Positions 1,474-43,563 of a stretch of DNA of 64,000 nt are shown here, piece by piece; the stretch's first letter is position 1, and each line of letters begins with the position of its first letter. The DNA comes from Bilabrum cf. latius (taxonomy: Eukaryota): the NCBI GenBank assembly GCA_965178125.1, contig OZ237744.1:1178001-1242000 (forward strand), read 5' to 3'. A model generated the notes under the pieces. It searched no databases. It worked only from the letters and a program-made list of their open reading frames with translations, and was not told the origin of the DNA. Position numbers and translations under genes: made by a program.

Positions 1474-2856
1474 TCACTGGCCCCCGCTGCAGCAGTCCTC
1501 GCACGGGTAGTCCGCCCCCTGCAGCCACAGCCGCGACCCGGGCACGAGGCCCCCGCCCCCCGCAGGCGCACCTGCATCCAGCCACCGCCACCACCGATCC
1601 GCAGCCACCGCCCCCGTGGATCCCTCAATCGTCACATTGAAGTCGTCAAACTTGCCCCCAGGCCCCAGCACCTGCCCCTGCCCCCACTGCCCGCAATGCT
1701 CGTGGCACGCTGTGATGAACGCCACGTTGCGGCTGACGTCGTGACCCTGCCACTCGCCCTCTCCGCCCCTCTTGCCCGCCCCTGCCCCCAGCACCCGCTC
1801 CCGCACGGACCCCAGGAGCATGGCGCCCACCTCCCGCACTGCCGTGTCGTTGCTACCCCCGATGCCCGCGCTGATGCTGTCCATCGCCGGGTCGAACCGG
1901 CTGTTCATCACGAACAGCGGAACATCCACGCGCGGTGCCGAGTCCTCGGGCAGGACGCACACCACGCTCGGGTCCTTGCCCCCCTGCAGCGCCTCTTCGA
2001 CGCAGTTCTGGTTGAGCGCGGCCGTGTTGTTCATGGCCCGGCTGATCCACGTGAGGGCGGCGGGCCAGGCGGGCTTGAGAGGGGTGGAGAGGAAGTACCC
2101 AGAGTCGGGGGCGGCGCGGACCGTGGCCTGCGGGATGCGGGACTGCAGGTAGTCCGCGTGGTAGTACGTGGCCAGGCCGCCGGCCGAATCACCGCTCACG
2201 ATGGCGTGCGAGGCTTCGCCTAGGTTGAAGCGGGCGTGCAGATCGTCCAGCACCGACTGCAGGATGCGAAAGCCGCGGTAGTACATGGTCCTGGGCTTGC
2301 CGTCGTACACCACTTCCACAACTGTCTCGTTGTTGCCGGAAAAAGACCCACCGTCGCAGTACTGCATCCAAACCTTGTTCCAATCGTGCGTGAGAGGGTC
2401 GACACTCGGGTCGTTGTTCATGAGGCCCCCGCACCAGCGCGAGCCCAAGCAGGACGGTATGTACTGGTAGTTCATCGTGGCATTGTAGGCCGACAGGTTA
2501 CCCGGCATCATGTTTCCCGATTCGCGCAAGAAGCACGCCGGATCTGAACTTCCCAAATAGCACTTCTCGCTAAACGCTCGCTTGGCGCACGAGCTCTCCG
2601 ATTCGCACCAACCACCACCCTCAAAATGAAACGACCACTTTGTGGCATTCTTCGACTGCGGCTCCGCCAGGTTGATCCAGTATCGCCCTGGCGTACCATC
2701 CAAGCAGCGAGCTCCATTGGTTTCGACGTACTTCGAAAGCAATTGCGCATGGAACAGGTTTGGCTCAGCAGCCGCGTGCACAGCTGCTACGATAGGAAAG
2801 AGCAGTCCACACGGAATGGTACTGAGCATCATAGTCGTTAATGTTCCAATAGCCAT
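1474..2856 (-). CDS. Pectin acetylesterase/Notum-family hydrolase, tandem copy 2, secreted
   Basis: Signal-peptide-like N-terminus, CLDGTPG, FEGGGWC, WNKVWMQYCDG, nucleophile elbow GDSAGG and ACHEHC. Ends at TGA 1474-1476. Confidence 0.9.
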   Translation of the reverse strand: MAIGTLTTMMLSTIPCGLLFPIVAAVHAAAEPNLFHAQLLSKYVETNGARCLDGTPGRYWINLAEPQSKNATKWSFHFEGGGWCESESSCAKRAFSEKCYLGSSDPACFLRESGNMMPGNLSAYNATMNYQYIPSCLGSRWCGGLMNNDPSVDPLTHDWNKVWMQYCDGGSFSGNNETVVEVVYDGKPRTMYYRGFRILQSVLDDLHARFNLGEASHAIVSGDSAGGLATYYHADYLQSRIPQATVRAAPDSGYFLSTPLKPAWPAALTWISRAMNNTAALNQNCVEEALQGGKDPSVVCVLPEDSAPRVDVPLFVMNSRFDPAMDSISAGIGGSNDTAVREVGAMLLGSVRERVLGAGAGKRGGEGEWQGHDVSRNVAFITACHEHCGQWGQGQVLGPGGKFDDFNVTIEGSTGAVAADRWWRWLDAGAPAGGGGLVPGSRLWLQGADYPCEDCCSGGQ

Positions 2857-2969
2857 CGCATTCGGCCATTGTTGCGAGCTGATTTGCACCGCCGTGAGGC
2901 AAGAACATACGAACAGCCAGTGAACTACAGTGTTTGGGACATCGAGCTGGAAAAGTTGCACTTCCCATT

Positions 2970-6986: not shown

Positions 6987-9900
6987 TCATCGCTCCCTCT
7001 ACAGACGCCTTTTCAGCGCTGCTTTCCGTATATCGTCTTTTCCGATTACGTCGTCCCCCTGCAGCACGTTTGTTTGGCTAGCTCGAGCCGTACCGATCTG
7101 GATGCGGTCCAAACCAATGGCCGGCGCCAGGTGCGGCGACTTCGATTGGGAAGAGGACCCCGCCCGGTGGCTTCCCATCGCGGCCTATCCATCGGGACCG
7201 CTGCTTCCCTATTGTGGTTGCAGCCCGCGCACGGGATCTCCTGCCCGGACCTGCGGCCTTCCCTTACCAATGGCAGTGTCACTCTAACTGGCTCTGCCTG
7301 TTGGCGCCCCAACTTGAAGTGCAGCAGAAGCAGCAACAGGGGTACCGGAGCCGTGCATCTCGTTCGGCTCCAAAAACGCTTGCAGCACAGCGGGATGGAT
7401 CGGTGTCCCGCCTTTATGTCCCCCTGAGGAGGAAGCCCCAACCCCAGCCCCAGCCCCATCACCAACACCGACCCCACCACGGGAGCCCCGCACCCCGTTA
7501 CCCACACCCGCGGTGGCAGACCTGCCCGCCGCAATGCCCCCCGCTGCCCCCACCCGCGCACCTGCAACTCCTGCTCCTCTACTGACCCCCCCCTCACCGC
7601 CCTCACCGCCACCGCCATCATCTCCCCCTCCCCCACCCACCTGCCTGCGCAGCGCAGACCGCCTGGCAGGCCCCGCGCTCGCCCGCCGCCCTGCCAGCTA
7701 GATGCCCCCCTCTGCGGGCCCCCTGGCCCCAGCCCCAGCCCCAGCCCCAGCCCCAGTTCCATGGATCCTCGCAAGCTCCAGCCCCATGCTTGCAGGCCCC
7801 AGGGAGGACGAGTGCCTCCGCATCGCGCTCTCCAGCGTGGCCCTGGACGCCACAACGGACCCAGAGGCCCGCCGCTTCACCGCGATCTTGCTGTCCTCCA
7901 TCGCCTCTGCCAGCACGTGACTCCCGGCCGAGTCCATCCTCTCGATGAAGATCAGCTGCTCCCTTTGCTTGCAGTACCTCGCCAGGATACCCTGCAGCGC
8001 GCGCTTCAGATCCTCGGCGGTGTGAACGGCCCGGGCCTGCTCCTCTTGCTCCGCGGGGGAGCCCGGCCGCAGCTGGGGAACAAGGGAGGAGGGAGGCGGG
8101 GGCACGGGGATGAGCCCGTCTTGGGCCTGCTCTTGTCCGCCGGCTGCCCCCGTGCTGCCTTCCTTGTGCCCCGACTCGGCGATGGACGACGACGTCGCAG
8201 CTGCTGCCCCACCGTTTTGCTTGCCACCGCTCCAGTCGTCCACCTCCTCACCGCCCTCCTCTCCCACGCTGCCAGCCCCGTCATCGTCCTCGTCCTGGCC
8301 CTCGCACGACGTGCCAGTTCTGTACTTGTACTAGCTTCCTGCTCCCATGCCCCCGCTTGCGCGAGACATCAGGCCGGTTCTCGAGTTGACCGAATCGTGC
8401 CTCTGCGCGCTCACGCCCCCTCTACTCCGCGGGCCAGGCACCCCCTCCTCCAGCGCCATGTGAGACGGGAGTGACGAGAGCCGACGGGCCGCAGCAACTG
8501 TTCCCCTCGGGCCCAGCTCCCCCAGCCCCCCCGGATCCCCACTGTTCCCCACCTCTACCACCACGCTCTCTGCCGCGCTCGCCTGCCGCCCCAGGTCACT
8601 AACACCCGGAGGGGCCTCCCCGCTCGCGACGCTCTGTCCCTTGCCCCGGTCCTCGCCCGGAACCCCGTCCTCGCCGTCCCCGTCCCCGTCCCCGTGGATG
8701 GGCGCCTGGCTGCAGTAAAAGACCAGGTCTGCATCCCCCGAAGCGTTGTACTGGATGTGCGCCCGCTGCACGTCGAACCCCTTCTCCGTGAGCAGCGCCG
8801 CGATGTCCGCCAGCGCCCTTCGGTCCGCGTTGGGAAAGCCCACCCCGATGCGCAGGAGGGTCTCCTCATCCACCAGGACGGGCCGCTCGTCGCAGGGGCA
8901 CCGGCTGGTCATGCCCCCGCCCAGGTCCGGCACCTTCACCATGGCCTCTCCCTTGGTCCCTTGTTCTCTGAGGAGGCTGGTGAGCACCTCCTTGACCTTG
9001 CGCCGTTGGGCCGCCGGGATGGCAGCCCCCGGATCGTCCGCCCTCCGCACGAACAGCACGTCCACGTCAGTATCGCCCTCCCGCTTCTTAGCGTCTGCGG
9101 TCACGATGTCCAGCTGCAGGTCACGCAGCTTGGACAAGATGTGCACGAACAGGCGGTCCCTGTGGCCCGCAGTCAGCTGAATCTCCAGCATGGACGTGTC
9201 CTCCTGCGCGATTGGCGTGAACACCACCGTCCCGTTCGGATCGTCCAACGCCTCGAGGGCCTCGTGCCTGACCTCGTCCAGCTTCTCCTACCCGACGTCT
9301 CCCGTCCCGTCCCTCGGGGCCACCGTGAACTGGAACACGTCCAGGTCACCGTCCGTCTCGCAGTTGGCCTCCACCACCTCCAGCTCAGCCACCCTGAAGA
9401 TGTCGAGCACCTCCAGCAGCACCCCCGGCCTGTGCAGGCCCTCCACCCTCACCCCGAAGGCGCCCACGGCGTGCTTGCCGTGCCGTTCCTCCGCCGCGCT
9501 CGCCTTGGGTCCGATGGAGTGGGACCGCATCACCTCCACTGCCGCCAGCCGCTGCTGCAGCACGTACTTGAACGCCAGAGGGGAGGCCACCGTGCACAGC
9601 AAGAAGGCCCAGATCACCGCGGCGTACACCTGCTCGTTCATCAGCGAGCGAGGCCCACCGCCAGGCCCCTCGCCCTCGGAGCCTGCCACCTCCGTGTTGA
9701 GCGCCACCTCAGCCACGAGGTAGGCGAACTCCCCGCGCGCCGCCATGGCCCACCCCACCACCCACATTTCTTGCGCGCCCAGGTGAAGAGCAGAGATCAG
9801 CTTGCCGCCCAGCGCGCCCGCCACCCCCAGCACCAGCCCCTGCCACACCGCCGTTGGGCTGAACAGCACGGCCACGGGAATGCTGAAGGCCACCGAGGCC

Positions 9901-11077: not shown

Positions 11078-11221
11078 TTTCTTGTCGGAAGGACAAGAAT
11101 AAGTAATCCTTCCGCTGCCCGGTTGTAACCACTGGCATCAACTCATCAAGATGGTGTGACCAGTGCATTCTAGGTTACATTGGTTTACTACACTAAGTGG
11201 CGGTGGTTGCCCACCTCCACC

Positions 11222-12548
11222 CGGCTGCATCGCAAGGCTATCCAGCCGAGACACCGCGAGGCCAGTCTGTGGCCGAGCCTCAATCATTCTAGCAGCCATC
11301 GGCTGCAGCACGAGGCTATCCAGCCGAGACACCGCGAGGCCAGTCCGTGGCCGAGCCTCAAGCATTCTAGCAGCCATCGGCTGCATCGCAAGGCTATCCA
11401 GCCGAGACCCCGCGAGGCCAGTCTGTGGCCGAGCCTCAATCAATCTAGCAGCCATCGGCTGCATCGCGAGGCTATCCAGCCGAGACGCCGCGAGGCCAGT
11501 CTGTGGCCGAGCCTCAAGCATTCTAGCAGCCATCGGCTGCAGCACGAGGCTATCCAGCCGAGACCGCACGAGGCCAGTCTGTGGCCGAGCCTCAATCAAT
11601 CTAGCAGCCATCGGCTGCATCGCAAGGCTATCCAGCCGCGACGCCGCGAGGCCAGTCTGTGGCCGAGCCTCAATCAATCTAGCAGCCATCGGCTGCATCG
11701 CAAGGCTATCCAGCCGAGACACCGCGAGGCCAGTCTGTGGCCGAGCCTCAATCATTCTAGCAGCCATCGGCTGCATCGCAAGGCTATCCAGCCGAGACCG
11801 CACGAGGCCAGTCTGGGGACGAGCCTCAATCATTCTAGCAGCCATCGGCTGCATCGCAAGGCTATCCAGCCGAGACGCCGCGAGGCCAGTCTGTGGCCGA
11901 GCCTCAATCAATCTAGCAGCCATCGGCTGCATCGCAAGGCTATCCAGCCGAGACACCGCGAGGCCAGTCTGTGGCCGAGCCTCAATCATTCTAGCAGCCA
12001 TCGGCTGCATCGCAAGGCTATCCAGCCGAGACCGCACGAGGCCAGTCTGTGGCCGAGTCTCAATCAATCTAGCAGCCATCGGCTGCATCGCAAGGCTATC
12101 CAGCCGCGACGCCGCGAGGCCAGTCTGTGGCCGAGCCTAAATCAATCTAGCAGCCATCGGCTGCATCGCAAGGCTATCCAGCCGAGACACCGCGAGGCCA
12201 GTCTGTGGCCGAGCCTCAATCAATCTAGCAGCCATCGCAAGGCTATCCAGCCGAGGCCGCACGAGGCCAGTCTGTGGCCGAGCCTCAATCATTCTAGCAG
12301 CTATCGGCTGCAGCACAAGGCTATCCAGCCAAGACCGCACGAGGCCAGTCTGTGGCCGAGCCTCAATCATTCTAGCAGCTATCGGCTGCAGCACGAGGCT
12401 ATCCAGCCGAGACGCCGCGAGGCCAGTCCGTGGCCGAGCCTAGATCAATCGAGCAGCCATCGGCTGCATGACAAGGCCATCCAGCCGAGACCGCACGAGG
12501 CCAGTCTGGGGACGAGTCACAATCATGCTAGCAGCCATCGGCTGCATC
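11222..12548. repeat. 78-bp tandem satellite, about 17 copies
   Basis: Unit ggctgcatcgcaaggctatccagccgagacaccgcgaggccagtctgtggccgagcctcaatcattctagcagccatc with recurrent variants. One copy near 12230 has a 9-bp deletion. Confidence 0.97.
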
Positions 12549-13670: not shown

Positions 13671-15214
13671 ATGCGTCTCGTTGCTGGCCTGACTAAATGT
13701 GGATAGTCACTGAGCTTCCTAGGACGTCTATTTCTAGGAGCAAGGCTGGAAGTTTCATCGGGATATCCTGACGTGAGTGGTGGCGGCCAACACACCGAGA
13801 ACCGCTTCGGTCTGCGATACTTCGTAGAATCAATGTGACAGTTGCGTTCCTTCTCTCAAGATCGCAGAGTATCTCACTCACTACTCGCGATGGCTTGGTC
13901 CTGTCTGGGCCCGGAACGATCGCGCAGGCCATGGTGGCAGCATCCGAGATCCCCCAGGCCGCGCAAATGCTCGGCGACGGACCGGCCGAGCAGGCCCGCG
14001 TCGCCAGCTGGCTAGCAGCTAGCGCTAAGGCTAGCGACGATGGTTCCGACTTGGATAGCCTGGACCGCGCCCTCAAGGCCTCTTCCTATGTGTCGGGCGG
14101 GCGCCTGACAGCCGCGGACATTCTGACGCTGCACGCCGCGCACTCAAAGATCGCCGCGGAGGCTCCCGAATCGCTGCAGAAGCTCCCCTCTCTGCTACGA
14201 TGGGTGGACCAGCTGCAGCACGAGCTGCCCGCAGTGTTCGCCGGCGTGCCCGGGGCCGCGGGGGTGCTCGCTCTCCATTGCCCCCCCCTGCCCGTCCCCC
14301 AGGTGGGGGGCGCAAAGGAGGCAGCCGAACTGGTCGCAGCTGCGATTGCAGCCCCAAGGGCAGCCGCAGGTGCCGGTGCTGCGGATGCTCCAGTAGCTGC
14401 TGCAGCTGCTGCCGGTGGTGCCGGTGGTGCCGGTGGTGCGGGTGCGTCCTCCGGGGCAGGAGCAGATGGAAGCGCGGCTGCCGCAGCCGCGGGAGGTGCG
14501 GGTGCCGCTGCCGGTGCAGACGACGTGGCAGCCGCTCGCGCCGCCAAGAAGGCGGAGAAGGAGGCGAAGAAGAAGGCCCGGGCTGCATAGAAGGCCGCTA
14601 ACGAGGCAAAGCTGGGCAAGGGCGGGAAGGGTGGGAATGGTAAGGGCAAGGGTGGTGGCGGGGGCGGAGGCGGTGCTGCCGCGGGGGGCGCTGCGGACGG
14701 CGCCCCGATCACCCGTGCGGACATCCGCGTGGGTCTCGTCGTGAAGGCGTACCCGCACCCGGAGCGTGAGAAGCTCGTGTGCGAGGAGATCGACGTGGGG
14801 GAGACCGAGCCCCGGACCATCGCCTCGGGTGTGAGCGCCTTCTACAAGCCGGAGGAGGTACAGGGGCGCAAGGTGGTGGTGCTGTGCAACCTGCCTCCCC
14901 GCAAGATGGGCGACGAGTTCGCCTTCAAGTCCAACGGGATGGTGCTCTGCGCCTCGGACCCCGAGCACAAGAACGTCAAGTTCGTGGAGGTGCCGGAGGG
15001 CGCCAAGCCGGGCGAGAGGGTCTCTTTCCCGGGCCACGAGGGGGAGCCCCTCGCGCCCAAGCCCTTCGCCAAGAAGAAGTGGCTCGAGAAGATCCTGCCC
15101 GGGTTCAAGGTGGACGGCTCCCTGCAGGCCACCTGGGACGGCGTGCCCTTCACCACCAGCGCGGGGCCATGCTTCATCAAGGACGAGTCCCTCAAGGGAG
15201 GCGTCATCGGGTGA
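13671..15214 (+). CDS. Arc1p/AIMP1-like aminoacyl-tRNA synthetase cofactor (GST-like domain plus EMAPII-type tRNA-binding OB fold), about 482 aa
   Basis: Exons 13671-13772 and 13868-15214, intron GTGAGT..CGCAG. GST-C-like SYVSGGRLTAAD..LLRWVDQLQ, then DIRVG..HPEREKL..EIDVGE..RTIASG..VLCNL..SNGMVLCAS. TAG at 13704 and 14588. Confidence 0.88.
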
Positions 15215-15333
15215 ACGATCAGCGCGCGAACTCGTCCTTCCTGCCAGGTTTTTTGGTTGATAATGTGCACTGCCAGTGACAACTCGGAGCGCATCGATGC
15301 CCATGTTGCGGCGCTGCATTCGTCCACGAGAGC

Positions 15334-17142
15334 ATGACAAAGCTCGCTGTCGTTATTGTTGCGGCATTCCTCATAACAATAGTTCGCAATGCACCTCTGC
15401 AGCCCTGCCCCTCAGCGCGTGTTGGCTTCATTGCTCAGCACGCCGCGGTGGAAGTTGGCTAGCTACCTTTGCCGATCTGGATCTCGTTCCAGGAGTGGCC
15501 AGGGAAGGAGTCATGCCCATGCTTGCTAGGAATTGAAGTATCCAATCATTTTACGAAGCAGCGCATGTACACGAGCACCGTTACTGCGGACCCGTGCCGA
15601 TCTAGACGACGGCAGTCGCAGCTGTCAATGAATCACTCTGCCCTACTGGATTCAATGTAGGGGGCACTACAGAAGCCAGGCATGGGCGTTGTAGATATTC
15701 GGATTCAGTCAGTCTCACGACGGCCGAATCAACCTGACCGGCTCATCTGGCACACGGACATTGCGAGCGAAGGAGAGGCCGACAAGTACACTACGAGGCT
15801 GGTTCTCTCCAGAAAGCCTGCATCCAGTGATGAGCAAGTTCCGGGGGACAGCATTGCTTCAACGCTAGTGCGGTACGCCGATGCATATTCCGATAGCCCC
15901 CGCTTCGCCGAGCAGGCGCGGCGCATGCAGTCGCCGTACGCCTCGGTCCGTGCCGAGTGGTCCGCCTGGCAGTATCGGCGGTACACCGACACTGTCGCGA
16001 GGCGCGTCACCGGCTACGCTTCTCGCCACCCAGCCCTGGCACAGCGCCCGGGCCCGACGGACCAGTTGCCTCTGCTCCCGTTCTCGCAGCTCCGCCGCGC
16101 CACCGGCACGGACTGGCCGGCGGCGGGCTCCCCACTCCGCTCCCCCTGGCGCCCCCTCCCAGGCCGAGGAACAAGGAGAGCGAGCCTCACTAATAACGCA
16201 TCGTCTGACCATGTTGCAGGCCCACCGGTGACGCCGCGGCGGCCTCACCCCTCGGGCCCTTCCACGATGATAGGCATGGTGAGGTGCAGGAACCTGATGG
16301 ACTCCATCTGGCACGTGCACCGGGGCTCGATCCCGGGAGATATCCTGGAGGCGGGGGTCTGGCGAGGGGGCGCCGGGGCGCTTGCCGTGGCCAGTCTCCA
16401 GTGGCTGTGGGAGCATGAGTGCTGGGGCGAGCAGGCGCAGCCGAGCAGGTGCTCGGTGCTCGCCTCCCGCGCCGTGTGGCTCGCGGACTCGTTCGATGGC
16501 CTGCCGCCGCCCCAGGGGCCCGAGGATGCGGTTGCAACCGCCCAGTGGGACAAGCTGGACTACGTGAGGGCGAGCATGGAGCAGGTGCGCGAGGCGGTTC
16601 GAAGCACGCTCGAGTGGGCGAGGATCGGATCAAGATCGAGAGCTAGGACAAGGCAATTGCAGGCCGCCAGTGGTGGCGGTGCCGACGCCGATGGTAGAGG
16701 AAAGGCAAGCGGGGCCCACACGGTGCCTGCACGCGCTATCACCGGGTTATTTCGGGATTCGCTTGCGCCCTGGCTTCAGGGCGAGCAGGGGGAGGTGCTG
16801 TGGCCCGCCGGCTCGGGCTCGAGCACTTGCTCGGGGCGGACGAGCACGCTTGGTGGAAGCGGGGTCGGGTGCCAGCTGGCCTTGCAGGGGGCCACCAATC
16901 GCACGATTGCGGTGCTTCGGGTAGATGCGGACATGTACTCCGGTACAATGGACGTGCTATCTCTTCTGTACGATCGTGTGAGCCCGGGAGGCATCGTGAT
17001 CGTGGACGACTGGGCAGTCTGGGAGGCACAGCGCGCCACCCTTGACTTCAGGGAGAGAATCGGGCTCGGCGGGGAAAATGGAGTACAAGCGCCGCTCATT
17101 ATTCTCGAGGATATGCAAGGTGCGTGGTGGCGCAAGCCATAA
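15334..17142 (+). CDS. TylF/MycF (macrocin O-methyltransferase) family protein with an N-terminal signal or anchor (602 aa with TAG=Gln)
   Basis: Motifs TMIG..R, PGDILEAGVWRGG, VWLADSFDGLP, GLFRDSL, IAVLRVDADMY, SPGGIVIVDD and C-terminal WWRKP followed by TAA. The frame extends upstream through TAG 15658 and 15460 to ATG 15334 (MTKLAVVIVAAFLITIV). Confidence 0.85.
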
Positions 17143-17279
17143 TCGTTGCACTAGCGGTGGCCAGTCGTTGCTCTGCCTCTGGCCGATAGATTTGCAAGGA
17201 TTCATAATAGCGAACACTTGATCTCTGATCGACTGGAACAATCAAATAAACATGAAATCAGTAAGGGCAATTGCCTGCA

Positions 17280-17627
17280 TCACGAAGCTTGCTCTTTGCC
17301 CTCTGCGGCGGTCCCGTCCTCTTTCTTCTGGTCCATGCCCAGCATCTCCTTGATCCCATCGCCCACCTGTTGCAGCCCTGTCCTCTCCTCGCGGACCTCG
17401 TGGCCTTCGGGCGCGATGGTCTCTGCTGCAGATTTACGCGCTTCTTCTGCTTGCTCCTTGGTATATTCGTGGGCGTCCTCGGCCTGCTTGTTCGCGGCTT
17501 CGTACGCATCGGATGCGGCCTGCGTGACCGCACTACCTGCCTCTCCTGCGGCGCCGGATGCCTTGTCCATGGCGCCTTCTGCATGCTGCATAGCTTTGGT
17601 ACTATCTTTTCCTTCTTTTGATGCCAT
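17280..17627 (-). CDS. Small hydrophilic LEA-like protein (115 aa)
   Basis: A/E/K/Q-rich with amphipathic repeats (ASDAYEAANKQAEDAHEYTKEQAEEAR). ATG 17627, TGA stop. Confidence 0.65.
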   Translation of the reverse strand: MASKEGKDSTKAMQHAEGAMDKASGAAGEAGSAVTQAASDAYEAANKQAEDAHEYTKEQAEEARKSAAETIAPEGHEVREERTGLQQVGDGIKEMLGMDQKKEDGTAAEGKEQAS

Positions 17628-18169
17628 CGTGCGTTGTTTTGTGTCTGCGATTCGAAATTGTGAGTGTTCCGGAATGACGTGTCGCAACAACTCGATAGCA
17701 TGCCCGCTGAGCAAATCATTGCAGCCACAAGTACTCCAATAACCAAGAATGTGTTAAAGAGAATACTGTCAGTGCCGATGGGGGCAGCACGCCCGCGCTC
17801 ACCTATTTTTGCACTTGTAATTGTGCGGTAGACGCCTTTCATCAGGGTAGATCTAGGTGACTCCGAGTGATCGGATCAGCACAATACAACTCCGAATCAC
17901 AGCACGGATCCAGGACACAGGCCTTGACTAGGAGGCAATGTACATCATCTCTTGGGCTTGATAGGGTGACCGAGTCCGAACTTGGGCTGGGCCTGGTGAT
18001 TCGAGATGCAATACTGCCAGCAGTGCTGAATGACCAGAAGTCACAACGCTTGTACAACAAACATCCCCAACTTGAAGCAGTCCTGGAGCCCCGCCCCTAC
18101 CCAGTAGAGTCTAGGTCCTTGGCGAACCCAATCCAACCCAATCCTGCTACGCGGTACGCCCATCGCTAT

Positions 18170-21100
18170 TCACTGCCCCCCTGTAGAGACCCTCTTAGCC
18201 AATAGATCCATGCAACCAGAAACGCTGCCGAGCGCCCCGGTTCTCTTTGCCTTCTTCCCCCCTCCCGCTTGCCCGGCTCCCTCGCCCCTGGTGCCACCAT
18301 TCCCGCTTCCTCCCGCTGGACCCTTCCCCCCCTCGCCATCCCCAACCCCTTCCTCTCCGTCCTGCCATCCTTGCCACTGGGATTCCACGATTGCCCGCTG
18401 TCTCGACTGGGAGGGTGGCACCGAGGAGGTCTGCGAGGCTGCTAGGCCGGCCGCAGCTGATGAGGACGAGGACGAGGACGAGGACGAGGAAGATGACGAT
18501 GAAGATGACGATGAGGCAGAGGCCTGCCTCGCCATGGCAGCGGCACGCTCCACGGCTGCACACGCACGATTCGCGCCATACTCGCCTGCACCTGCACCTG
18601 CACCTGCACCTGCACCTGCACCTGCACCTGCACCTGCACCTGCACCTGCACCTGCACCTGCACCTGCACCTGCACCTGCACCTGCACCTGCACCTGCACC
18701 TGCACCTGCACCTGCACCTGCTCCCGATCTGCCACTCCACTACTGTCGATTCCCGCCCACACCAGGCAACAGCCCCGCACCCTCCACTGGCAGCGACCCA
18801 GCCCCGCTCACGGACAAGGAGCTCAGCGCGCCGGAGCCAAGCCTGCTCGAGCTGCTGCCGGTACCAGCCGCGCGCCCATCCTCCAGAGTAGCACCGGCGC
18901 CTGCAGCCGCCGCCGCCAGGATCGCCACCCCGCTCGTCACTGCCTCTGGCCTGGGATGCAAACTCTGCCCTGAGTATTGCGGAGAAAGTTGCTGCCCGGA
19001 ATGTGGCTTCCTTGGCATACTGGCAATCTAGGCCGCTGCTGCAGCTGCGGCAGCCGCTGCGCTTGCCACCGAACTCGGACCACGCAGCAGCGCAGATTGG
19101 GGCGGAGGTATACCGCTCCCGCGGTGGCCTGGATGCCCAGCGCTTCCGTGCCCTGATGCACCTACTCCTGCCCACCCATGGGGTTGCATGTTCTGCCTGT
19201 AGACAGATGCGTCCTGATTCCAACCCGAAATATTCTCGGGAGGAACGAACTAAGATCCCACCGGGACAGGCTCCGTCAGTTCATACCGCGGAGAATCGTC
19301 CGCGCCGGGAAGAGAGTCGGGTGTGCCTCCTCGCCCGAGGCCGCTCCCGCCATGGCAGTACCCGTCTCCTCCCTAAGCGCTGGCCTCCTCGTCGCCGTCC
19401 TCGCCGTCATCATCTGACATGACCACCTGCCTTTTCCTTGCCTTCAAGAGGCGCTTGAGCTTGAGACCACCCTTTCCCATGCTTCTCTTGCGGTATGATG
19501 AGCCTCCGCCACGACGCCGCGGTCCTCCGCCCGGCACGAAAGACGACCGGCCGGTCGCGGTGAGCGTCCAGTCGGCCTACCCATCGACATCGACATCGCC
19601 CGCGTCCGCTTCCCCATTGGAGGACGCGCCCTCGCTTTCCCCATCTTCGTGGTACCGCTTGGCTTCCCTGGCAGTGAGGCCGGGGGCCAGGGCAGGTGCA
19701 GCTGGCAGGCGCACCTCCTGGTTATGAGGCAGGTCCACCCTCTCGTAGAACAGCTGTGGGAGCGGGAGGGGGGGAGGATAGAGAGGCCAGCGATTAGACA
19801 CAGGTGCAAGGCATTGGTGCGGTAACAACGTCAGGGTAGCACGGAATCGAGCGCGGGATGTCACGTTGCGGAGCAACTAGCATGGCAGAGCGAGCGAGCA
19901 GTACGGGCAGCGCAGCTAGATTCTCTCTTACCAGGTATGCCTGCTGCCGCTGCACCTCGTCCCAGTCGCAAGGGGTAACGTAGCTGTCGTTCATGCAATA
20001 CCACTGCTCTGCGGGCAAAGATTTGCAGTCCGTGTACCACCCGCGAGGCAAGCACTTAACGTACGCGAAGTAGTGCCCCGAGAAAGAGCTCTAGCCAGAG
20101 TGCACAACGACACCGCGCAGACGGTACGTGTGCCTCGCCCGGGCCTGCGGGCTACCGGCAGCTGCCTCGCTGGCTCCTTGCTTCCCCGCGGCAGCAGCTG
20201 CAGGCCCACTTGAGGCCGAGGAAGCCCCTCCGGTACCCTCCTGTTCCACGTCCCTGGGTGCCTCTGGCTCCACCAAGCCGTGCAGCTGCAGGACCTCGTC
20301 AAAGTCGAGGTGCGTCTGGATCTTGGACCCACCCCCAAGACTGAGACCGCTATTGTATCCACCATACCCTCCAAACCCACCATAGCTTCCGTACGATGAC
20401 GAAGTGCTGCTTCCGTTAGAAGGGTACCCACCTCCCATGCTTGCACCGTACCCACGGTAGCCGTTGTGGTTGCTACGGGGGTATGCCGAGCCGGGGCCGA
20501 ATGAATATGGGCCGCGGCCAGGGGGTTGACTGCGCCCTCCATGCGCCTTTGGATTGCCAGAATACCGCCCTGCCATCCCTTTCTTTCGGTAACCGCCGTA
20601 CAGGCCTCCTGCTCCGAACCGGAAACGCTTCAGATGGACGACAAGCATCTCGGGCATGGCATCCGGTAGCCGGAGCCCCTTCCGGGCTGGCTGGAGGCCC
20701 ATCTTCTTCTCCTTGCATTTCTCGCACTCGTACTTGTTGTCCCCATCCAGGATCTCGTCCGTGAAGAATGCCTCCAAGCAGTCTCCCACCGACCGAGCAC
20801 CCGCGGGGATCTCGAGGTTGAGGGCCTGGGAGTCGTCCTGCTTGCGGCTCACCGCCCCGCACGTGCTGCACTCCACCCGGTTGACCAGCCCAAAGTGCAT
20901 GACCTACGTCCATGGGAGCCCCGCCTTCCGGGCGTCCTCCTCACCCGTGTCGATGAGCTTGGCAAGGAACTCTTGCGCATCATGCTGCCGACCACGGGAG
21001 AGGCCACCGGATTGAAGCCGCGGCAGAGTTGCTTCTAGCTTGTGTGGCGACACTGATTTATCCATGCCACGGCCAGGAATACGATTTACAATCAACCGCC

Positions 21101-23169: not shown

Positions 23170-23672
23170 ATGGAGAATTTGGAAGCCGAGCAGGTTGCAT
23201 CCGGATTATTCAAGTTCCGGCGCCGCGCATTTTTGCTAGCGGAACAAGACACTACGGCATTCCGAGCCGTTCCATTCAAACGAGATGGGTTTGCTTGCCG
23301 ACTTAGTCAAAATTGGGATTGGATTTGCTATTGGTGTGTGGTATCGCGAGCACCACGAGGTTGACTACGACAGTTTGAAAGCGCAGGCCTAGCGAGAGCT
23401 TGACCAGCTGCCGAAACGAGTGAGGCTAGCTTGATATCGTCGAATCGCGCTCATTTCCCGTCGATATAGCAGAATTCATCGTTAAATTATTGGTTGTTAC
23501 CGCCTTGCAGATGGAAGAATTGGCCAAAGTTATGCGAAATCTTCAGGAAGAAGCATCCAAGAAAGCGCCGAAATTGCCGAAAGGCGAAGATTCCAAGGAT
23601 GATTTCGACGGGATGGATGATGATTGGGAGAACGAGTATGAGAATGACGATGATGACGAGGGGAGGCGATAA
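23170..23672 (+). CDS. Small acidic coiled-coil hypothetical protein (tentative 3-exon model)
   Basis: MENLEAEQ | VDYDSLKAQA(Q)RELDQLPKR | MEELAKVMRNLQEE..DDDDEGRR-TAA. The second intron GTGAGG..TTGCAG is clear. The first intron's junctions are weak. Confidence 0.4.
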
Positions 23673-25605: not shown

Positions 25606-26214
25606 ATCTGAGCCCTAGGATGCGCTCACTGCGGCCATGGATTGGTCTTGTGTTGCCGGCAGATCCTGCAAGGAACCCGGAAACGAAGGTTCGCCCACTA
25701 CGTGGTTGGCGAAACGCTTAGAACGCAGTAATCCGTAGTACTATACGCGCAGCGTAGTATTCGTTGCATCAAAGTTTGTTTGTCCCCAGTACATTGGACC
25801 AGCAGACGATACATATCTGATCTGGCCTTCAATTATTCTGAGCCGGGCCTGTTCTTGGCCACCAAGCACGGCAGCAGCACGAAGCAGAACGAATTTGCAA
25901 GCGGATTGAGCTAGAATGAAGAAATCTGTGAGATATAAAGAGTGTACTACTGTTGTTAAGGTCATACTGTGTCCCCCCATGCACTCTTTCTCATGCCCGA
26001 ATGGGTTGACAACGCGTGGCGCGCAGCAGAAAGAACCAAATGCGTTTGAAGCCAGCTACATTCTACACTATTGCAGAAAATTGATGTACAGCCGCCAGTG
26101 GCGTCAATCTGGTGCGATGCAGCGGGAAAGGGCTGCTCTACCTTGGTTGTCCGCGTGGACCTTTCCGAGAAAGATTTTCGCTTGCTGAAGCAAATCTAGG
26201 ACGGAACCGTGCAG

Positions 26215-29200
26215 ATGGAGGGCACAGTTATTGCTGACTATTAGCCCACTGCAGCCGCATGGGCGACCGGGTACGGTGCTCACACAGTCCGCGCTAAGAT
26301 GATCGGGGCAGACCGTGCGTCGCTCGCTGCCCGGGCAAGCTCCCGCTCGAGGGAAACGTTCCGCAAGGTGGCGCTGCTCGGCGAACCCTCGGGGAACACG
26401 ATGCGCGCCATGCTCAGCGTGGCCGCTCCTCGAGACAGGGGGGCCTCGAGCGCCTCGGCGGCAGGAGCAGCCACGGGTGGAGCGAGCACCGCATCAGCTG
26501 CCATCACGGAGGACCATTGGTGGCCCATGGAGTGTGAGTACAGCCTATTGCAAGCCTAGCGATGCATCTGTGTGTTTACTACTCCCAGCCTTGCCCTGCT
26601 TCCACCATCGTTTAGAAAATTCAATCACCCCTGCTGCTTGCTTCCATATCGGATCGCATGTTTTGTCCACCTCCACTTCCATACCGCCGCAGTCGAGGAC
26701 TCAGCGGAGGACGAGCCCGCCAAGCCCGCCTGCGTGTGCGTGCTGCGCGGCCTCAAGCCGGACCTTCCCTACAGCATCACCGCCACCCTCCGCCTCCGCC
26801 AGGTTGCCCTGACCGAGGGCGCCTCCTCGGGGCCCTGGGTGGAGAGCCCCCCGAGCACGCCCATCGTGGAGCAGGTCGTGGACCCTGCCACGGCCTGCGC
26901 CAACCAGCTGGACAGGGAGGCCCTCCTGGCAATGCAGTTCGCGCGGCGCATGCAGCTGGCCCGGAAGGCTCTGCTGGACGAGATCCGGCGCCCTGTGGAC
27001 GGGAGGGGCGGCAAGATCAAGGCCCTGGTGGCGCACGCGGAGGCCATGCAGAGGCGCATCGACCTGTTGTAGAAAGGGGACGGCACAGACGCGGCTTCGC
27101 TGAGACGGAGGGTCACCGAGTTGGAGTCCAGGCTGGCGCAGGCGGAGGCTGGGGCTGGGGCTGGGGCTGGGGCTGGGGCTGAGGCCGCTGCCTTGCCTCC
27201 AAAGGCGGCAGTATCTGTGCCAGGCCGCGACTTTGAAAAGGAGTCCGCAAGGCTCCGTGACGAGCTGGCCAAGGCACAGGCAGAGGCAAAGTCTCTGCAG
27301 CGGACCGCACGGGATGCAGGCAAGGTCGAGGTGGCTCGGCTTTCGTCTGAGGTGGAGGCAGCCAAGAAGGCGCAGGCAGAGCTCGAAAAGCAGCTCGATG
27401 AAGCCAAGGCGCAGCTGCAGCAAGCTCGCCGAGGTGATGCACTGGTGGACGAGAAGAACAGAGAGATTGAGGAGCTGCAGCGGGAGCTGGAGGCAGCCAA
27501 GGCCACGGCGGGACAGGTGGAGGAGCTGCAGCGGGAGCTGGAGGCAGCCAAGGCCACGGCGGGACAGGTGGAGGAGCTGCAGCGGGAGCTGGAGGCAGCC
27601 AAGGCCACGGCGGGACAGGTGGAGGAGCTGCAGCGGGAGCTGGAGGCAGCCAAGGCCACGGCGGGACAGGTGGAGGAGCTGCAGCGGGAGCTGGAGGCAG
27701 CCAAGGCCACGGCGGGACAGGTGGAGGAGCTGAAGCGGGAGCTGGAGGCAGCCAAGGCCACGGCGGGACAGGTGGAGGAGCTGCAGCGGGAGCTGGAGGC
27801 AGCCAAGGCCACGGCGGGACAGGTGGAGGAGCTGCAGCGGGAGCTGGAGGCAGCCAAGGCCACGGCGGGACAGGTGGAGGAGCTGAAGCGGGAGCTGGAG
27901 GCAGCCAAGGCCACGGCGGGACAGGTGGAGGAGCTGCAGCGGGAGCTGGAGGCAGCCAAGGCCACGGCGGGACAGGTGGAGGAGCTGCAGCGGGAGCTGG
28001 AGGCAGCCAAGGCCACGGCGGGACAGGTGGAGGAGCTGCAGCGGGAGCTGGAGGCAGCCAAGGCCACGGCGGGACAGGTGGAGGAGCTGCAGCGGGAGCT
28101 GGAGGCAGCCAAGGCCACGGCGGGACAGGTGGAGGAGCTGCAGCGGGAGCTGGAGGCAGCCAAGGCCACGGCGGGACAGGTGGAGGAGCTGCAGCGGGAG
28201 CTGGAGGCAGCCAAGGCCACGGCGGGACAGGTGGAGGAGCTGCAGCGGGAGCTGGAGGCAGCCAAGGCCACGGCGGGACAGGTGGAGGAGCTGCAGCGGG
28301 AGCTGGAGGCAGCCAAGGCCACGGCGGGACAGGTGGAGGAGCTGCAGCGGGAGCTGGAGGCAGCCAAGGCCACGGCGGGACAGGTGGAGGAGCTGCAGCG
28401 GGAGCTGGAGGCAGCCAAGGCCACGGCGGGACAGGTGGAGGAGCTGCAGCGGGAGCTGGAGGCAGCCAAGGCCACGGCGGGACAGGTGGAGGAGCTGCAG
28501 CGGGAGCTGGAGCAGGCTCGCAAAGATGCTGTCGAGGCTGCGGAGAGGGCGGAGAGGGCAGATCGTCTGGCGGAGGGCAGAGTCACCGATGCAGCCACGG
28601 GAGCAAGCATGGCCCAGCAGCGTGTGGCCCTGTTGGAGCAGGACCTGGTTGATGTCCGGGCTAAGCTGCAGGTGGAGCAAGACTCGGTCAGGGCGCTGAG
28701 GGCTGCCCAGAGGGCTCGGCAGGCGGACGCGAAGGAGCAGGACAACCGGAACGCTAACAAGGTGCAGCAGCTGGAGGCGCGTCTGCGGCAGGCGGAGGAG
28801 GCGGTGAGGGAGGCCAGGGCGGAGGCACAGCAGCACGCCGAGGCTGCGAGGGCGGCGGCCGGCAGCGCTGCCTCTCAGGAGGTGCAGAGCGCGCAGGAGG
28901 GGAGGGACCATGCGCAGAGACAGCGCGACGAGGCAGTGAGAGAGAAGGATGCGGCCAGGGCGGAGATGGCCGAGGCCAGGGTGGTGTTGCAGCGACTGCA
29001 GGAGCGAGTGGAGGCGGAGACGAAGGCCCGGCAGGAGGCGGAGGAGGGCAGGGCGGAGTTTGAGAGGCTCCGGGCGAGGTCAGAGGAGCAGCACAGCCGC
29101 ATGGTGTGCTGCACGCTGCAGCTGGAGGACCTGTGCAAGGACGTGCAGGCCACGGTGGGACAGGGGGAGTCGGCGAGTGGCGGAGAGAGGTCGGCTGTGC

Positions 29201-29703: not shown

Positions 29704-30436
29704 AGCGAACAGTTAACAAGTTGCGTGGTAAATCCGTTCAGAACGCCGTTTCAGGCGTGGACAGTCTGTCACTTATTTGGTGACCACCACCCTTACGCCA
29801 AGTCTCGCATAGCGGAACAGCCGTCTGGCGCTGCGCGGCGCCAAGCCCTCCAGCCATCGGCCGACACAAAGCACATCGTAGCTTCATGAGATTTTCGACT
29901 TCTGCGCGGCGTGTAATCAGTAGGATGAATAGTGAGTGTACAACAGTCCGTTGGCTGAATGCATCAGATAACAGTCGGCTGATTGCCTCTTGGCGCTCCA
30001 ACTGCTGACAAGTGATGCCTTCGTGTCTGTATCCACTTAAAGACGCAGCTGGGGCTTCTAGATTGCGCGTTATGGCATCTGTCATCAGGCCTATAAGCTT
30101 TGTATCCATGGAAGTGCCTGTGTGTGGTAATGCTGGACAGGGTAGCCTCCTCGTGGGGGCTGCTCAGGCGACTGCGGCAGGTTCAACTGGTAGCGCGTCC
30201 GGGCTTTCTGTCCTTTCAGAAGACAGCGACTTGGAGGGTTTGGCAGACGAGGACGACGTTGACCCAGTAGGATAACCAGCGGGTTTGCCACGGGGCTCGC
30301 TGGTTGGATTGAATCCGTGGTCAGTGGACAGATTCGTCTTGCGACGCACAAGCCGCACTCATGCTCTGCTTTGTGTGCTTCTGAATAGGAATGCGATTTA
30401 AACATGTATTTCACATCAAGTGCCTTGGTGCTGCTA

Positions 30437-33400
30437 TCACTACCCAGTGCGGGGCCGCTTGGCCGCTGGCTCGTCATCTTCACCGGTGAGGTCCACCACC
30501 CGTGTGGTGCTATGCGGCGGCGGGGCGACCGCCTGCCCAGGCACAGCCCCCATGGCATTTCCATCACTCCCCACAGCACGCGCTTCACCCTAGTGCACAC
30601 CTGCGGGCTGGACGGAGCTCCCACCGTCCGCTGCGGCAGCCGGTGCTAGTGGGAGCTACGCGACTGGCACGCCTCCGACGACTCCCGTTGCAACGGGCAC
30701 AGGCAGCCCCTACCCCTGCCCCCGCCCCTCCTGCTCGAGCGCTTGGATGGGCCTCTTGCTCCCGATTGCCGCCCCGCCTGCACCAGCACCAGTACCCGCA
30801 CCCGCACCCGCATGCATTGGCAATCCTGCATCCCCAACACCAGCAGCAGCAGGTGCAGCCACTGCAGCGCCAGTCACGCCGGGCACGAGCGATGCCGCAG
30901 CCGCTTGCACCTATCCCTGCACCTGTCCCTGCACCTGCACCCCCAGTGCCTGCATGGCCACTGGAACCACACCCTGCACCTGCTGCACCTGCACACCCCC
31001 ACTGGCTTGCAACGCAGCAGCACCGGCCCCTGGGATAACCACCCCGGCCCCAGCCCCCGCCTGCCCATGCAGATGGGCCACTCCTGGCACCAGGCCAACC
31101 GCCGGGCCCGGGCCCCCTGCGACAGAGCCAGGCACCGGGGTACCTGGCGTGACCGGCACAAACCCATGCCCGTTGGCCAAGCCAGCCGCCCCGGTGACTG
31201 CTGACCCGGTCCCACTGGTTGGCGCGCCTGCACCAACACCTGCACCTGACTGTGCAAGCGCCTGACCAGGCACGAGCCCGTGCACTGCCCCTGCCACAAG
31301 CCCGTGATGCTGCGGCTGCACCTGCAGCTGGGGCTGAAGTCCCTGGGTCGGAGCACCCTGCAGCTGAGGCGGCTGTGTGCCGTACGGCCCGCCCTGCTGC
31401 ACGGCCGGCATAGGCATTACGCCCTGCGGGGCCGGCTGCGGCTGGCTGGCGGAAGGGTAGGCCACAGCCTGCGCCTGGACCTGCGCTAGCGAGGCTGAGC
31501 CGGGGAGCGCGCCTGAGCTGGCAGGCATCGACACCATATAGGTGCTAGGTGCACTCGCCTGGCCCTGGCCCTGGCCCTGTATGGGCACGGGCATGGATGA
31601 AGGGGGGAATGCCTGTGTGCCCTGTGCCATGGCATATCCATGTGGCTGTGCCTGCCCTGCCTGCCCTGCCTGCTACTGCTGCTACTGCTGCATCAATTGC
31701 TGCTGCTGTTGCTGCTGCATCATGGCTCCCACCCTTTGCGCGGTGAGCATGAGTGCCTGCTTACCAGCGAGCGCGATGGTCTGAGAAGGCGCCCCACTGC
31801 GAGCTGCCTTGAGCGAGACCTGGTAGCACGCCTGCAGGCATGCCTCCCTCTGCACGGGAGGCATGCGGATCACCTCCTTCTTCTTCGCGTACTCGTCCGT
31901 CACCGCCTTGGCGATGCGCTGGGCCACTGCGTCGGTCACCACCAAGGGCTGGGTGGAGGAGATAGTCCCAGAGGACGCAACAGCACCGGCGCTGCCAGGG
32001 ACGCTGGCACCTGCAGTCCCGCCGGGCAGCATGGCTCGGGCCCCTGGACTGACCCCCGCTCCCGGTATACCCACGGGGATGGCGGGGTGGACCCCAAGTC
32101 GGGGGCCACTCCCGGGGATCATGACCCCGGGGGGCGCCCCCGGTAGAGCTCCCGCCCCCACCACGGGGAACCGCCCCGCACCCGCGTGCCCCGCCCGATG
32201 CAGCGGCGAGCCTTGCCCCACGGAGCCGAACCCTGCACGCAGCCCGACCCCAGGAGCCCCCCCCACGCCCAGCTGCGAGCCCACGCCCAGCCCCAGGCTG
32301 AACCCGTACCCCGACTGCCCCTAGGGCGCGTATCTCGAGAGGTCTCTCACCCGCAGAGAGGTGCAGAACCTGCGGTTGATCTCGCTCGCGGCGATGGGTG
32401 CCTCGTCCACCAGCAGGGCAGAAATGTCCCGGGGGTCCAGCGAGTCCACGCCGCGCATGCGCCGCAGCACCTGCAGCAGCGATGCGAATCGGCCCTGGCT
32501 GCGAGAAGCTGCCTCGAGCTCTTCAACGGGGGCCACAGCACCCGTCACCGGGACGTGCTTCTTCCCCCCGGCGGTCGTGTTGGCCGGGCATCGCGCCGAC
32601 AGGAGCTTGTCAGCGTGCGTCTTGTCGTAGGGCTGCGGGCCCTCGTCCTTTTTGGCTCCGGATCGCTTGCGCTTCCAACCGTTGCGGTGCAGCGCGGTGA
32701 ACGCCAGCAGCGCCGCCACGTTGCGGAGGAACATGAACGGGGTCAGGCTGCTCATGGCCTCCCTCGCCCTCTTCTCGATCTCGAAGTGCTGCACCGCGGG
32801 GTGAAGGTCGGACAGCCGGCCAAGGGTGCCCACCTCGCCGAGGGCCGCGCGCGACACCGCACCCGAAGTGGCACCAGCACTGCTGGCGGGCCCCACGCTA
32901 CCAGTAGTCCCTGCGCCCGCGATCGCCCCTGGCGCGCCTCCGCCTCCGACTACTCCAGGTGCTAAAGGCCCGGACCCCCCGCCCACGCTGCCGCCGATGC
33001 TGCTGCTGCTGCTCCCGCTCCCACCCGCGCCAGGCGCACCCGAGCCGTTGCTGGACCCAGCAAGCCCCCTGCCCCTAACCCCTCCCGCACCCACCACCGA
33101 CTGCCCCCGGGCCCGCCCCCCCCGTCCAAGCCCCCCAGAGGCATCCCTGCTGGCCCGGCCCGTGCTCAGCGCAGGCGCCCCCGGCATGTCCCCCGCGCTG
33201 ACCGCCGCGTGCACCGCCAGCGACAGGATCGTCCTTCGCTCGTGACCCCCAGCCCTGACGCACTCCTTGGAGTCAGAAGGGAGTGCTCTCAGGAAGGCCA
33301 GCAGCACGTCCAGTCCCGAGAGGAACCGCTTCAATGCCAGGCGCAGCGCGGGCGGGTCCGTGCGATGCGGCAGCCTCAGGGCTTCCTCCATGTAGGCGTG

Positions 33401-38637: not shown

Positions 38638-39470
38638 ATGGCAGCAGCCGGTAGTGCTGGCTCTGAACGCAGCGACATCGACCATCATAGTGATTCAGAG
38701 CGCACAGTGGCCTCAGATGACCCAGGTAGTTCTGGAGAAGATACCGAAGCAGATGATGAGGAGGAGGAAGAAATAGATCCGATGGGGGTCTCATTGACCG
38801 GGGGAGCTGCCCCTGATGTATCACACCCATGCTCTGACAGATTAATGGTAATTAATGACAAAGCTGAGTGGGTACTTTCGGGTGCCAAGCCAGGTAATGG
38901 GATCGAGTGCCTTCTCGACGGCGATGTGAGGACTTGCTCGGCTCCTTTGGCTTTCAGTAAGGTGCTACAGTGATTCCAATCGCCTCCAAGTTCTCGCTCT
39001 GAACCTTGCAGTTGGAAACATATTGGCAATCGGACGGTGGCGGAATCCCGCACACGATCACGGTGCGATTCTACCAGCGAGAGACTGTGCTCGGCGTGGC
39101 GCTGTACGTAGATTTTACCAAGGACGACTCGTACACTCCAAAATTTGTTTCCTTCTTGGCTGGTCACCTCCCTTTCAACATGCGCGTGATCCGCGACGTC
39201 GAGCTGACCGAGCCCGTTGGCTGGGTGTGGGTGCCGCTCGGCGAGATGAGCAAGGACCGCGGGGGGTTCGTCAAGCCCCTGCGCCCGCATACCATGCAGA
39301 TCCAGATCAAGTCAATGCACGCCGGCGGGAGGGACACCCACCTGCGGCAGGTGTGCCTGTTCGGGCCGCGACCGGTCCGGCTGGAGCTCCCCGGCAGCGG
39401 AGGTGGGGACGGCTTGCTGGGCGGGGCGCCCCTCTCTGCCTCCATGGGCGCGGGGCTGGTCCTCAGGTGA
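38638..39470 (+). CDS. APC10: Anaphase-promoting complex subunit 10 (DOC domain), 248 aa
   Basis: Exons 38638-38925 and 39012-39470. AEWVLSGAKPGNGIECLLDGD|LETYWQSDG, DDSYTP, EPVGWV and GRDTHLRQ. Confidence 0.93.
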
Positions 39471-39657
39471 TGATCAGATGCATGATGGGAGGATGTTGCC
39501 AAAGGACACGAGCACATCCTGGGCATTCTACACGCCCGGTGCGCAGGCATCATGATCTCAGTGCACGGCACAAGCTATGGATAAAATGGCTCACATGTCG
39601 CTCAAGGCAGTCGGGGCGCACCCTGTATGCGACGACCCGAAGGTTGTCGGCCTCACG

Positions 39658-42694: not shown

Positions 42695-43563
42695 ATGCGC
42701 GTGCTAGTTGGAGTAAAGCGAGTTGTCGATTATGCTGTCAAGATCCGTGTAAAGCCGGACAAGCTTGGTGAGCCCAGTTGGCAACTATTTTACATCCTGG
42801 AGCGGGAACCAGTACGCGTGCGTGTTGATACGATCGCTCGCGCTCCATTCCGTCTCAACGTACCGCAGGAGTTGATATTGGTAGCGTAAAGATGTCTATG
42901 AACCCTTTCTGCGAGATTGCTGTCGAGGAGGCGGTTCGATTGAAGGAAAAGAAGATTGCATCGGAGGTGGTCGCAGTCTCTGTCGGCCCGAAGCAGGCCC
43001 AGGAGCAGCTCCGCACCGCGCTGGCCATGGGCTGCGATCGAGCGGTGCATGTGACAACAGATATGCGCTTGGATCAGGAGCTGCAGCCCCTCGCGGTGGC
43101 CAAGGTTCTCAAGCACGTGTCTGAGAAGGAGGAGCCCAACATGTGGATTCTTGGCAAGCAGGCCATCGATGACGACAGCAACCAGACGGGACAGATGCTT
43201 GCCGCATTGCTGGACTGGCCGTAGGCAACGTTTGCTTCCGAGGTAAAGGTGTCCGAGGACAAGACCAAGGCCGAGATTGTGCGCGAGATCGACGGCGGCC
43301 TGCAGACAATCGAGGTGGACCTCCCCGCGGTGATCACGACCGACTTGCGGCTGAACGAGCCCAGGTACGCCACGCTGCCCAACATCATGAAGGCGAAGAA
43401 GAAGAAGATCGATGCCATGTCCATCGAGGACACGGGCGTGGACGTGACTCCGCGGCTGGAGGTGCTCGAGGTGTCGGAGCCCCCGCAGAGGGAGGCCGGC
43501 GTCACCGTGGAGAGCGTGGACGACCTCGTGGACAAGCTCAAGAACGAGGCGCAGGTCATCTGA
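42695..43563 (+). CDS. ETFB: Electron transfer flavoprotein beta subunit (255 aa)
   Basis: Exons 42695-42767 and 42869-43563. [49 protein letters not shown] (TAG 43222-43224) and [21 protein letters not shown]. Confidence 0.97.

Follow-up and report, generated by a model that had tools for sequence, protein, structure and literature searches.

UAG read as glutamine and UAA probably kept as a terminator in a 64-kb stretch of G+C-rich eukaryotic DNA

Can UAG have become a glutamine codon in the DNA studied here while UAA went on serving as a stop? UAA and UAG are, with few exceptions, reassigned jointly, and the earlier note on this locus, made from the letters alone, had proposed that the two codons are decoupled. 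At the scale of the window, by which we mean the whole 64-kb stretch that was analysed, this reading is supported: TAG was used as a sense codon for glutamine, and TAA behaved like TGA, being absent from reading frames and present at two well-anchored gene ends. We are rather confident, without being certain, that the code is one in which UAG was reassigned to glutamine, with UAA and UGA kept as terminators, the pattern of NCBI table 15.

The description of the DNA as GC-rich and intron-bearing was likewise borne out, with 59-70% G+C across the window and spliceosomal introns in RNA-like contigs. Such contigs supported six introns of 91-271 nt, which had a G+C content of about 50%. Contigs of four runs (X1, X5, X6 and X8) were compared with the window between positions 18722 and 27300 only. 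Runs X5, X6 and X8 are RNA only by guess, though spliced joints are present in them, and no run is recorded as RNA. Run X1 contained none of the splice joints and agreed with the window without any differing letters. The repeat at 18585-18721, a (GCACCT)n-type microsatellite within the frame of the UCH tail, was left out of the comparison. A non-canonical joint (GC..CT) from 19060 to 19382 was present in X5 and X8 contigs, with 21 letters on its short side and loose ends on its flanks at 19038-19041 and 19402. It may be due to another allele, a repeat collapse or another organism and was left out of the splice evidence.

The 24 gene models of the window comprise 15,570 codons. TAG occurred in frame 81 times, in 18 of the 24 models, and was thereby about as common as in the other two frames (89 and 86). 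With TAG read through, frames stayed open for a Na+/H+ exchanger, a UCH protease, an Arc1p-like tRNA-binding protein, an acyltransferase, a HEAT-repeat protein, two pectin acetylesterases, IFT54/MIP-T3, RLL, an MFS transporter, PGK, ACAD, ETF-beta, a DECR2-like reductase and APC10. Three of the places that bear on the meaning of TAG are the following:

43222-43224 (+): in-frame TAG in ETF-beta at a conserved Gln, from the PDB alignment with 1efv_B (E 8.9e-86)
49040-49042 (+): in-frame TAG in the isobutyryl-CoA-dehydrogenase-like ACAD at a conserved Gln, from the homologue column
40065-40097 (-): end of the DECR2-like reductase, from homology, with TAG at 40095-40097, nine codons ending in -AKL and TGA at 40065-40067

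In ETF-beta, LLDWP-TAG-ATFAS aligns to FLDWPQGTFAS of the human protein (1efv_B). The TAG column of ACAD held Q in 109 of the 120 homologues listed and in 19 of 26 in a smaller alignment, and Ser was absent among the residues printed. The best PDB match of the DECR2-like reductase was human peroxisomal 2,4-dienoyl-CoA reductase (4fc6, E 1.6e-70), and the C-terminal -AKL reached by reading through TAG is what we take to be a peroxisomal signal. TAGs were also placed within polyQ, (SQ)n and (GQVQ)n runs. In two conserved genes the TAG columns were variable, with N in 52 and Q in 31 of 120 homologues of PGK and E in 4 of 6 for IFT54. Judged from these alignments, the amino acid is Gln, and not Ser as in Scotinosphaera, or Leu.

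Several repeats were seen in the window. Two near-identical pectin-acetylesterase (PAE) genes lie in tandem at 3-1118 and 1474-2967 (-), both free of in-frame TAG. A 78-base tandem repeat fills 11197-12471, every one of its approximately 15 copies carrying a single TAG in one frame, and a 22-residue unit (EELQRELEAAKATAGQV...) recurs about 20 times in a coiled-coil gene at approximately 27400-28700.

The TylF-like gene of the window gave access to relatives. A search among representatives with the TylF protein returned the fragments P0247, P0248, P0250 and P0249, which are 88%, 84%, 62% and 63% identical to the window protein, the TylF of two relatives being filed as two fragments each (P0247 with P0248, P0250 with P0249). 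Both fragments of the second relative are encoded on L001, a metagenome contig of 4148 bases reached via P0249, and an in-frame TAG separates P0250 from P0249 on it. The gene order on L001, Arc1-like, TylF and UCH tail, is syntenic with the window, minus a LEA gene; L001 1-4148 corresponds to window 13772-19927, and in L001 only some 220 bases separate TylF from the UCH tail. Since the LEA-like gene is absent there, it was gained in the lineage of the window or lost in that of the relative. TylF is identical at 213 of 382 aligned residues. On L001 we counted five in-frame TAGs, no in-frame TAA and three TGA ends, next to 15 CAA and 20 CAG. All three TAGs in the UCH tail of the window are aligned with CAA or CAG codons of L001; of the two L001 TAGs in TylF, one faces a CAG of the window and the other an AGA in a poorly aligned insert. 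Four of five aligned TAG sites thus face CAA or CAG. Scanning metagenomes with the TylF of the window itself gave no match, and exact matches in the collection were obtained for none of five TAG-free window proteins.

The case for UAA as a terminator rests on the ends of two genes, the TylF-like gene and a small gene further downstream:

16264-17139 (+): conserved part of the coding sequence of a TylF-like O-methyltransferase, from Pfam PF05711, PDB MycF and L001
17140-17142 (+): TAA terminator of the TylF-like gene, from the Pfam profile end and the codon score of the read-through
17280-17627 (-): LEA-like small gene, convergent with TylF, with its TGA end at 17280-17282, from the open reading frame and sequence; codon score +0.43
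23285-23419 (+): exon 1 of the small gene, 45 codons with an in-frame TAG at 23390-23392, from sequence and the joint 23419 to 23511
23420-23510 (+): intron of the small gene, 91 nt, GTGAGG..TTGCAG, from the joint in X5, X6 and X8 contigs
23511-23669 (+): exon 2 of the small gene, 53 codons with an acidic tail, from sequence and spliced contigs
23670-23672 (+): TAA terminator of the small gene, from contig ends and the read-through score

The TylF-like frame is open from 15280 (15280-17142, 620 residues), and similarity to L001 starts near 15796. At 17125-17142 (+) it closes with TGG TGG CGC AAG CCA TAA, that is W W R K P and stop. The match to the Pfam TylF profile (PF05711, E 5.7e-37) covers profile positions 186-264 of 264 at residues 535-619 of 620, and the TAA follows one residue past the profile end. 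The best PDB match was mycinamicin III O-methyltransferase (MycF, E 1.3e-22); in the three PDB alignments shown, the last-but-one residue of the query is placed 2-3 residues short of the end of mycinamicin O-methyltransferase, query residue 291/292 aligning to its residue 272/274 or 275/283. Among the best 150 of 3967 representatives, 122 align up to the end of the query, and of these 66 end no more than five residues further on, 31 extend by 6-30 residues and 25 by more than 30. The WWRKP-TAA ending given in the earlier note is therefore present as described, whereas its portrayal as the family's usual W-R-K terminus has to be softened: to judge from these homologues, such an end appears common without being universal, a bare majority of the 122 stopping within five residues. 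The TylF orthologue of L001 extends beyond WWRKP by 17 codons up to a TGA, so the TAA at 17140 is not a conserved terminator. The window sequence after this TAA looks different from the L001 extension. Reading on through the TAA would, as had been pointed out, lead antisense across the LEA gene: the next in-frame TGA lies 272 codons on (17961), beyond the LEA-like coding sequence (17283-17627), and the stretch scored -0.24 bit per codon vs +0.16 for the TylF coding sequence.

The small gene, which starts with the ATG at 23285, was also correctly said to end in TAA at 23670. The joint of its intron (23419 to 23511) was seen in X5, X6 and X8 contigs and was missing in X1. Soon after the TAA the spliced contigs come to an end, at 23705 (X6) and 23733 (X8), 35-63 bases past it, and the X5 contig over the convergent PGK gene begins at 23748. 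These contig ends are only a weak hint in favor of termination at the TAA. Read-through would add 438 codons antisense to PGK with a score of -0.16 bit per codon. No Pfam family was found for either exon. The spliced X6 and X8 contigs span 23281-23419 including the TAG at 23390 and have no other letter there; since TAG is unchanged in these RNA-like contigs, the codon is not edited away.

Taken over all 24 gene ends, 21 were TGA and three TAA, the third TAA being the one at 37629, which is counted in here and discussed below. Only two of the 24 are secure TAA terminators, and neither is conserved; the caveat attached to the original proposal, that support is limited to two TAA terminators, was thus justified. 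The rarity of TAA as a terminator (2/24) may be ascribed to the high G+C content of the genome. The TGA ends are well anchored in several genes: 114 of 120 homologues of PGK and likewise 114 of 120 of ACAD end within three residues, as do 6 of 6 for IFT54, and the RLL profile match reaches position 253 of 253 at the last residue before TGA. At seven ends anchored by homology or motif (TylF, PGK, ACAD, IFT54, RLL, ETF-beta and DECR2-like), TAG was not needed as a terminator.

Another observation concerned codons close to the terminating TGA. In 4 of the 24 genes, a TAG lies 1, 4, 5 or 10 codons upstream of it, with about 1.25 such cases expected, by our own arithmetic, at the TAG frequency found overall: 30440-30442 in a 1878-codon gene, 6999-7001 in the Na/H exchanger, 51494-51496 in a coiled-coil gene and 40095-40097 in the DECR2-like gene, all on the minus strand. 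These TAGs may be former stops that are now read through to a back-up TGA. Furthermore, 3 of the 21 TGA-ended models carry a doubled in-frame TGA-TGA (ETF-beta 43561-43566, ACAD 50156-50161, APC10 39468-39473), which looks more than chance would give. The doublets recall tandem stops that have reportedly been described in ciliates with reassigned codons.

If UAA is a terminator, it should be missing from within genes. In accordance with the original claim, no in-frame TAA occurred in any of the 24 models (0 in 15,570 codons), with 25 and 39 in the other two frames; TGA likewise numbered 0 in frame, with 246 and 170 in the others. The accompanying remark that CAA is used freely holds in part only, CAA amounting to 99 vs 574 CAG. 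If TAA stood to TAG as CAA to CAG, 14.0 in-frame TAAs would be expected, and the probability of finding none is 8.6e-7; the GAA:GAG or AAA:AAG ratio would give about 16. There is some circularity in the zero count, given that TAA and TGA had been used to delimit the models. When frames were cut at TGA alone, TAA occurred only at edges or in introns. We also ran a blind scan over every TAA, TAG and TGA site on both strands, requiring 40 open, coding-like codons on each side. It was positive for 40 of 839 TAG sites, 0 of 349 TAA sites and 2 of 1364 TGA sites. The codon-usage score, computed by leave-one-out over the 24 models, was positive in all of them (+0.11 to +0.62 bit per codon).

Apparent in-frame TAAs could be traced to introns in three instances. 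TAA 19796 lies inside the joint-confirmed UCH intron 19754-19931, TAA 25936 inside the RNA-supported intron 25928-26076, and TAA 55280 belongs to a GTAAGAG donor, through which 54557-55278 is connected with the gene from 55410. The last gene is longer than the 844-codon frame first modelled from 55276, since an upstream exon at 54557-55278 (+) precedes a GTAAGAG..TTCGCAG intron and the part at 55410-57810. Two further places call for comment:

37627-37629 (-): in-frame TAA after an IFT54-like exon, within a candidate 189-nt intron 37453-37641, GTTAGT..TTGCAG
30009-30275 (+): 88-codon coding-like frame ending in TAA (30273), from codon usage

The first of them is the one place in the window that could favor a UAA of double meaning, which would terminate at gene ends and now and then be read as sense in other places. 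Such stop/sense codons have reportedly been found in Blastocrithidia and Condylostoma, and a double meaning cannot be excluded from 64 kb. At TAA 37629, the IFT54-like locus indeed has a coding-like stretch on either side, with which the codon is in frame. Against a sense reading, the stretch around it has the outline of an intron, 50% G+C like the RNA-supported introns and a negative codon score (-0.23), and the 349 TAA sites offered no further candidate. The TAA most likely lies inside this candidate intron, for which there is no RNA evidence; the alternative would be a third TAA terminator. We consider a double meaning of UAA improbable, though the least improbable of the alternatives considered. 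A rare or context-dependent sense UAA nevertheless cannot be excluded in a sample of this size: zero TAA in 15,570 codons sets, by our own arithmetic, a 95% upper bound of about 2 per 10,000 codons.

The IFT54-like locus itself holds two IFT54/MIP-T3 CH-like domains in tandem at 36031-38474 (-), one at 38145-38474 and one from 37452 downstream. They may be two genes, or one gene with the 189-nt intron in between; an in-frame ATG is missing where the downstream copy would be expected to have one. The frame at 30009-30275 is possibly a further small gene terminated by TAA, unverified and without RNA evidence.

A second alternative is the code of table 6, known from some ulvophyte algae, diplomonads and ciliates, in which both UAA and UAG are glutamine; TAA would then be rare merely by G+C bias and the two TAA terminators would be mis-modelled. 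It could be argued that TGA ends 21 of 24 genes in the window and 3 of 3 on L001, as if it were the sole stop, and that TAA is rare overall, with 349 sites vs 839 for TAG. This rarity does not account for an in-frame count of zero where 14.0 were expected, nor for the lack of coding-like flanks on both sides at any of the 349 TAA sites; in-frame UAA at Gln positions, by which table 6 would be recognized, did not occur in the gene models of the window. Nor are the two terminators easily read as sense codons: both read-throughs (272 and 438 codons) have negative coding scores and run antisense to a neighboring gene, and for the small gene the spliced contigs reach only 35-63 bases beyond its TAA. 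PGK, moreover, is of the animal/oomycete type, and no green-plant name occurs among the named entries of the 120 matches listed. Joint reassignment of UAA and UAG is accordingly very unlikely. The standard code, with the in-frame TAGs explained as unspliced in-frame introns, pseudogenes, RNA editing or assembly error, is refuted for practical purposes and retains next to no probability: some in-frame TAGs are indeed intronic, such as 26557 in intron 26534-26692, but the 81 TAGs are spread over 18 of 24 models, never beside TGA or TAA, match conserved Gln positions, stay unaltered in RNA-like spliced contigs with X1 agreeing with the window letters, and recur in the same pattern in the relative L001.

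How UAG alone would be captured can only be inferred. No tRNA gene, no Rfam family and no eRF1 gene were found in the window, and the decoding mechanism is untested because neither a tRNA gene nor the eRF1 gene is included. A tRNA-Gln with anticodon CUA would decode UAG; C34 of this anticodon would pair only with G, so that such a tRNA would read UAG and leave UAA unread. In eRF1, the only release factor of its kind in eukaryotes, recognition of UAG would at the same time have been lost or weakened and that of UAA and UGA retained. Hypotheses on eRF1 are set out in PMC5304391.

As to the organism, the proteins give weak hints that suggest a stramenopile affinity without establishing it. PGK belongs to the type shared by animals, oomycetes and Hondaea (best identity 74%), and a FastTree phylogeny of all 120 listed matches put it on the oomycete and Hondaea side with weak support (68 and 84). 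The best IFT54 matches were from Phytophthora and Chattonella, only six having passed in a search limited by its word index. Named eukaryotic matches of ACAD were from Cafeteria, Rhizochromulina and Symbiodinium, and the RLL protein, searched against a protein atlas, yielded no informative taxon. The aerobic mitochondrial enzymes ETF-beta and ACAD together with flagellar IFT54 rule out Iotanema or another anaerobic fornicate, and 59-70% G+C, spliceosomal introns and long multi-kb genes are not the style of a ciliate genome. An ulvophyte green alga was considered and dropped on the PGK type and the match list; to our knowledge, green-algal PGKs are of another type. As the organism is not firmly placed, an independent origin of the code stays an inference.

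For the lineage of this DNA, we see about even chances that it represents a further independent origin of the code in which only UAG became glutamine. The organism would be an aerobic and flagellated protist with a G+C-rich genome, possibly a stramenopile, and the change would be one at the level of a clade, perhaps with traces of the take-over. The change would be clade-level since the code is shared with at least one environmental relative. As traces of the take-over, the former TAG stops a few codons before back-up TGAs and the doubled TGA-TGA terminators may qualify. If true, ciliates and metamonads would for the first time cease to be the only groups with such a code, and the setting would be a G+C-rich one, in which one would expect UAA rather than UAG to be dispensable. 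Each new exception probes the coupling of the two codons, that is the wobble of UUA vs CUA anticodons and the way in which a single eRF1 can give up one of its codons. This question could conveniently be studied in a G+C-rich genome whose genes are ordinary and for which there are public runs with RNA data as well as environmental relatives. On the practical side, gene calling with the standard code breaks genes at every TAG, and annotation of this lineage therefore needs table 15 rather than 1 or 6.

A table-15-like code is of a known kind; the lineage looks new. Within the literature covered, which included 2025-2026, was incomplete and excluded supplements, there was no report of a UAG-only glutamine code in stramenopiles, labyrinthulomycetes or a new non-ciliate lineage. 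According to PMC5304391 and PMC11687900, UAG alone is glutamine and UAA a stop in the fornicate Iotanema spirale, the ciliate Protocruzia tuzeti and two phyllopharyngean ciliate lineages. The discussion in PMC11687900 speaks of only a handful of exceptions to the joint change of UAA and UAG; the cases listed in the earlier note agree with it, Protocruzia being its addition. PMC2984419, PMC5304391 and PMC11687900 assign UAR to glutamine in ulvophytes, Hexamita, Streblomastix, many ciliates and Amoeboaphelidium. In Scotinosphaera (Ulvophyceae), UAG is serine and UAA a stop (PMC8271138), and in the rhizarian exLh, UAG is leucine with UAA kept as a stop (PMC5304391).

The window shares with Iotanema, Protocruzia and the phyllopharyngeans that UAG is glutamine, that UAA and UGA terminate and that the two codons are decoupled. 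It differs from them in its 59-70% G+C, ordinary introns and long multi-kb genes, and also in that it encodes aerobic mitochondrial enzymes and flagellar IFT, with best protein matches to stramenopiles. With the table 6 lineages (ulvophytes, Hexamita, Streblomastix, many ciliates and Amoeboaphelidium), it has in common the change from stop to glutamine and TGA as main terminator; unlike in these, TAA is not a sense codon in the window (0 vs about 14 expected) and ends two genes. Scotinosphaera and exLh, finally, are alike in that only UAG was reassigned and UAA was retained as a stop, whereas UAG is serine in the former, leucine in the latter and glutamine in the window.
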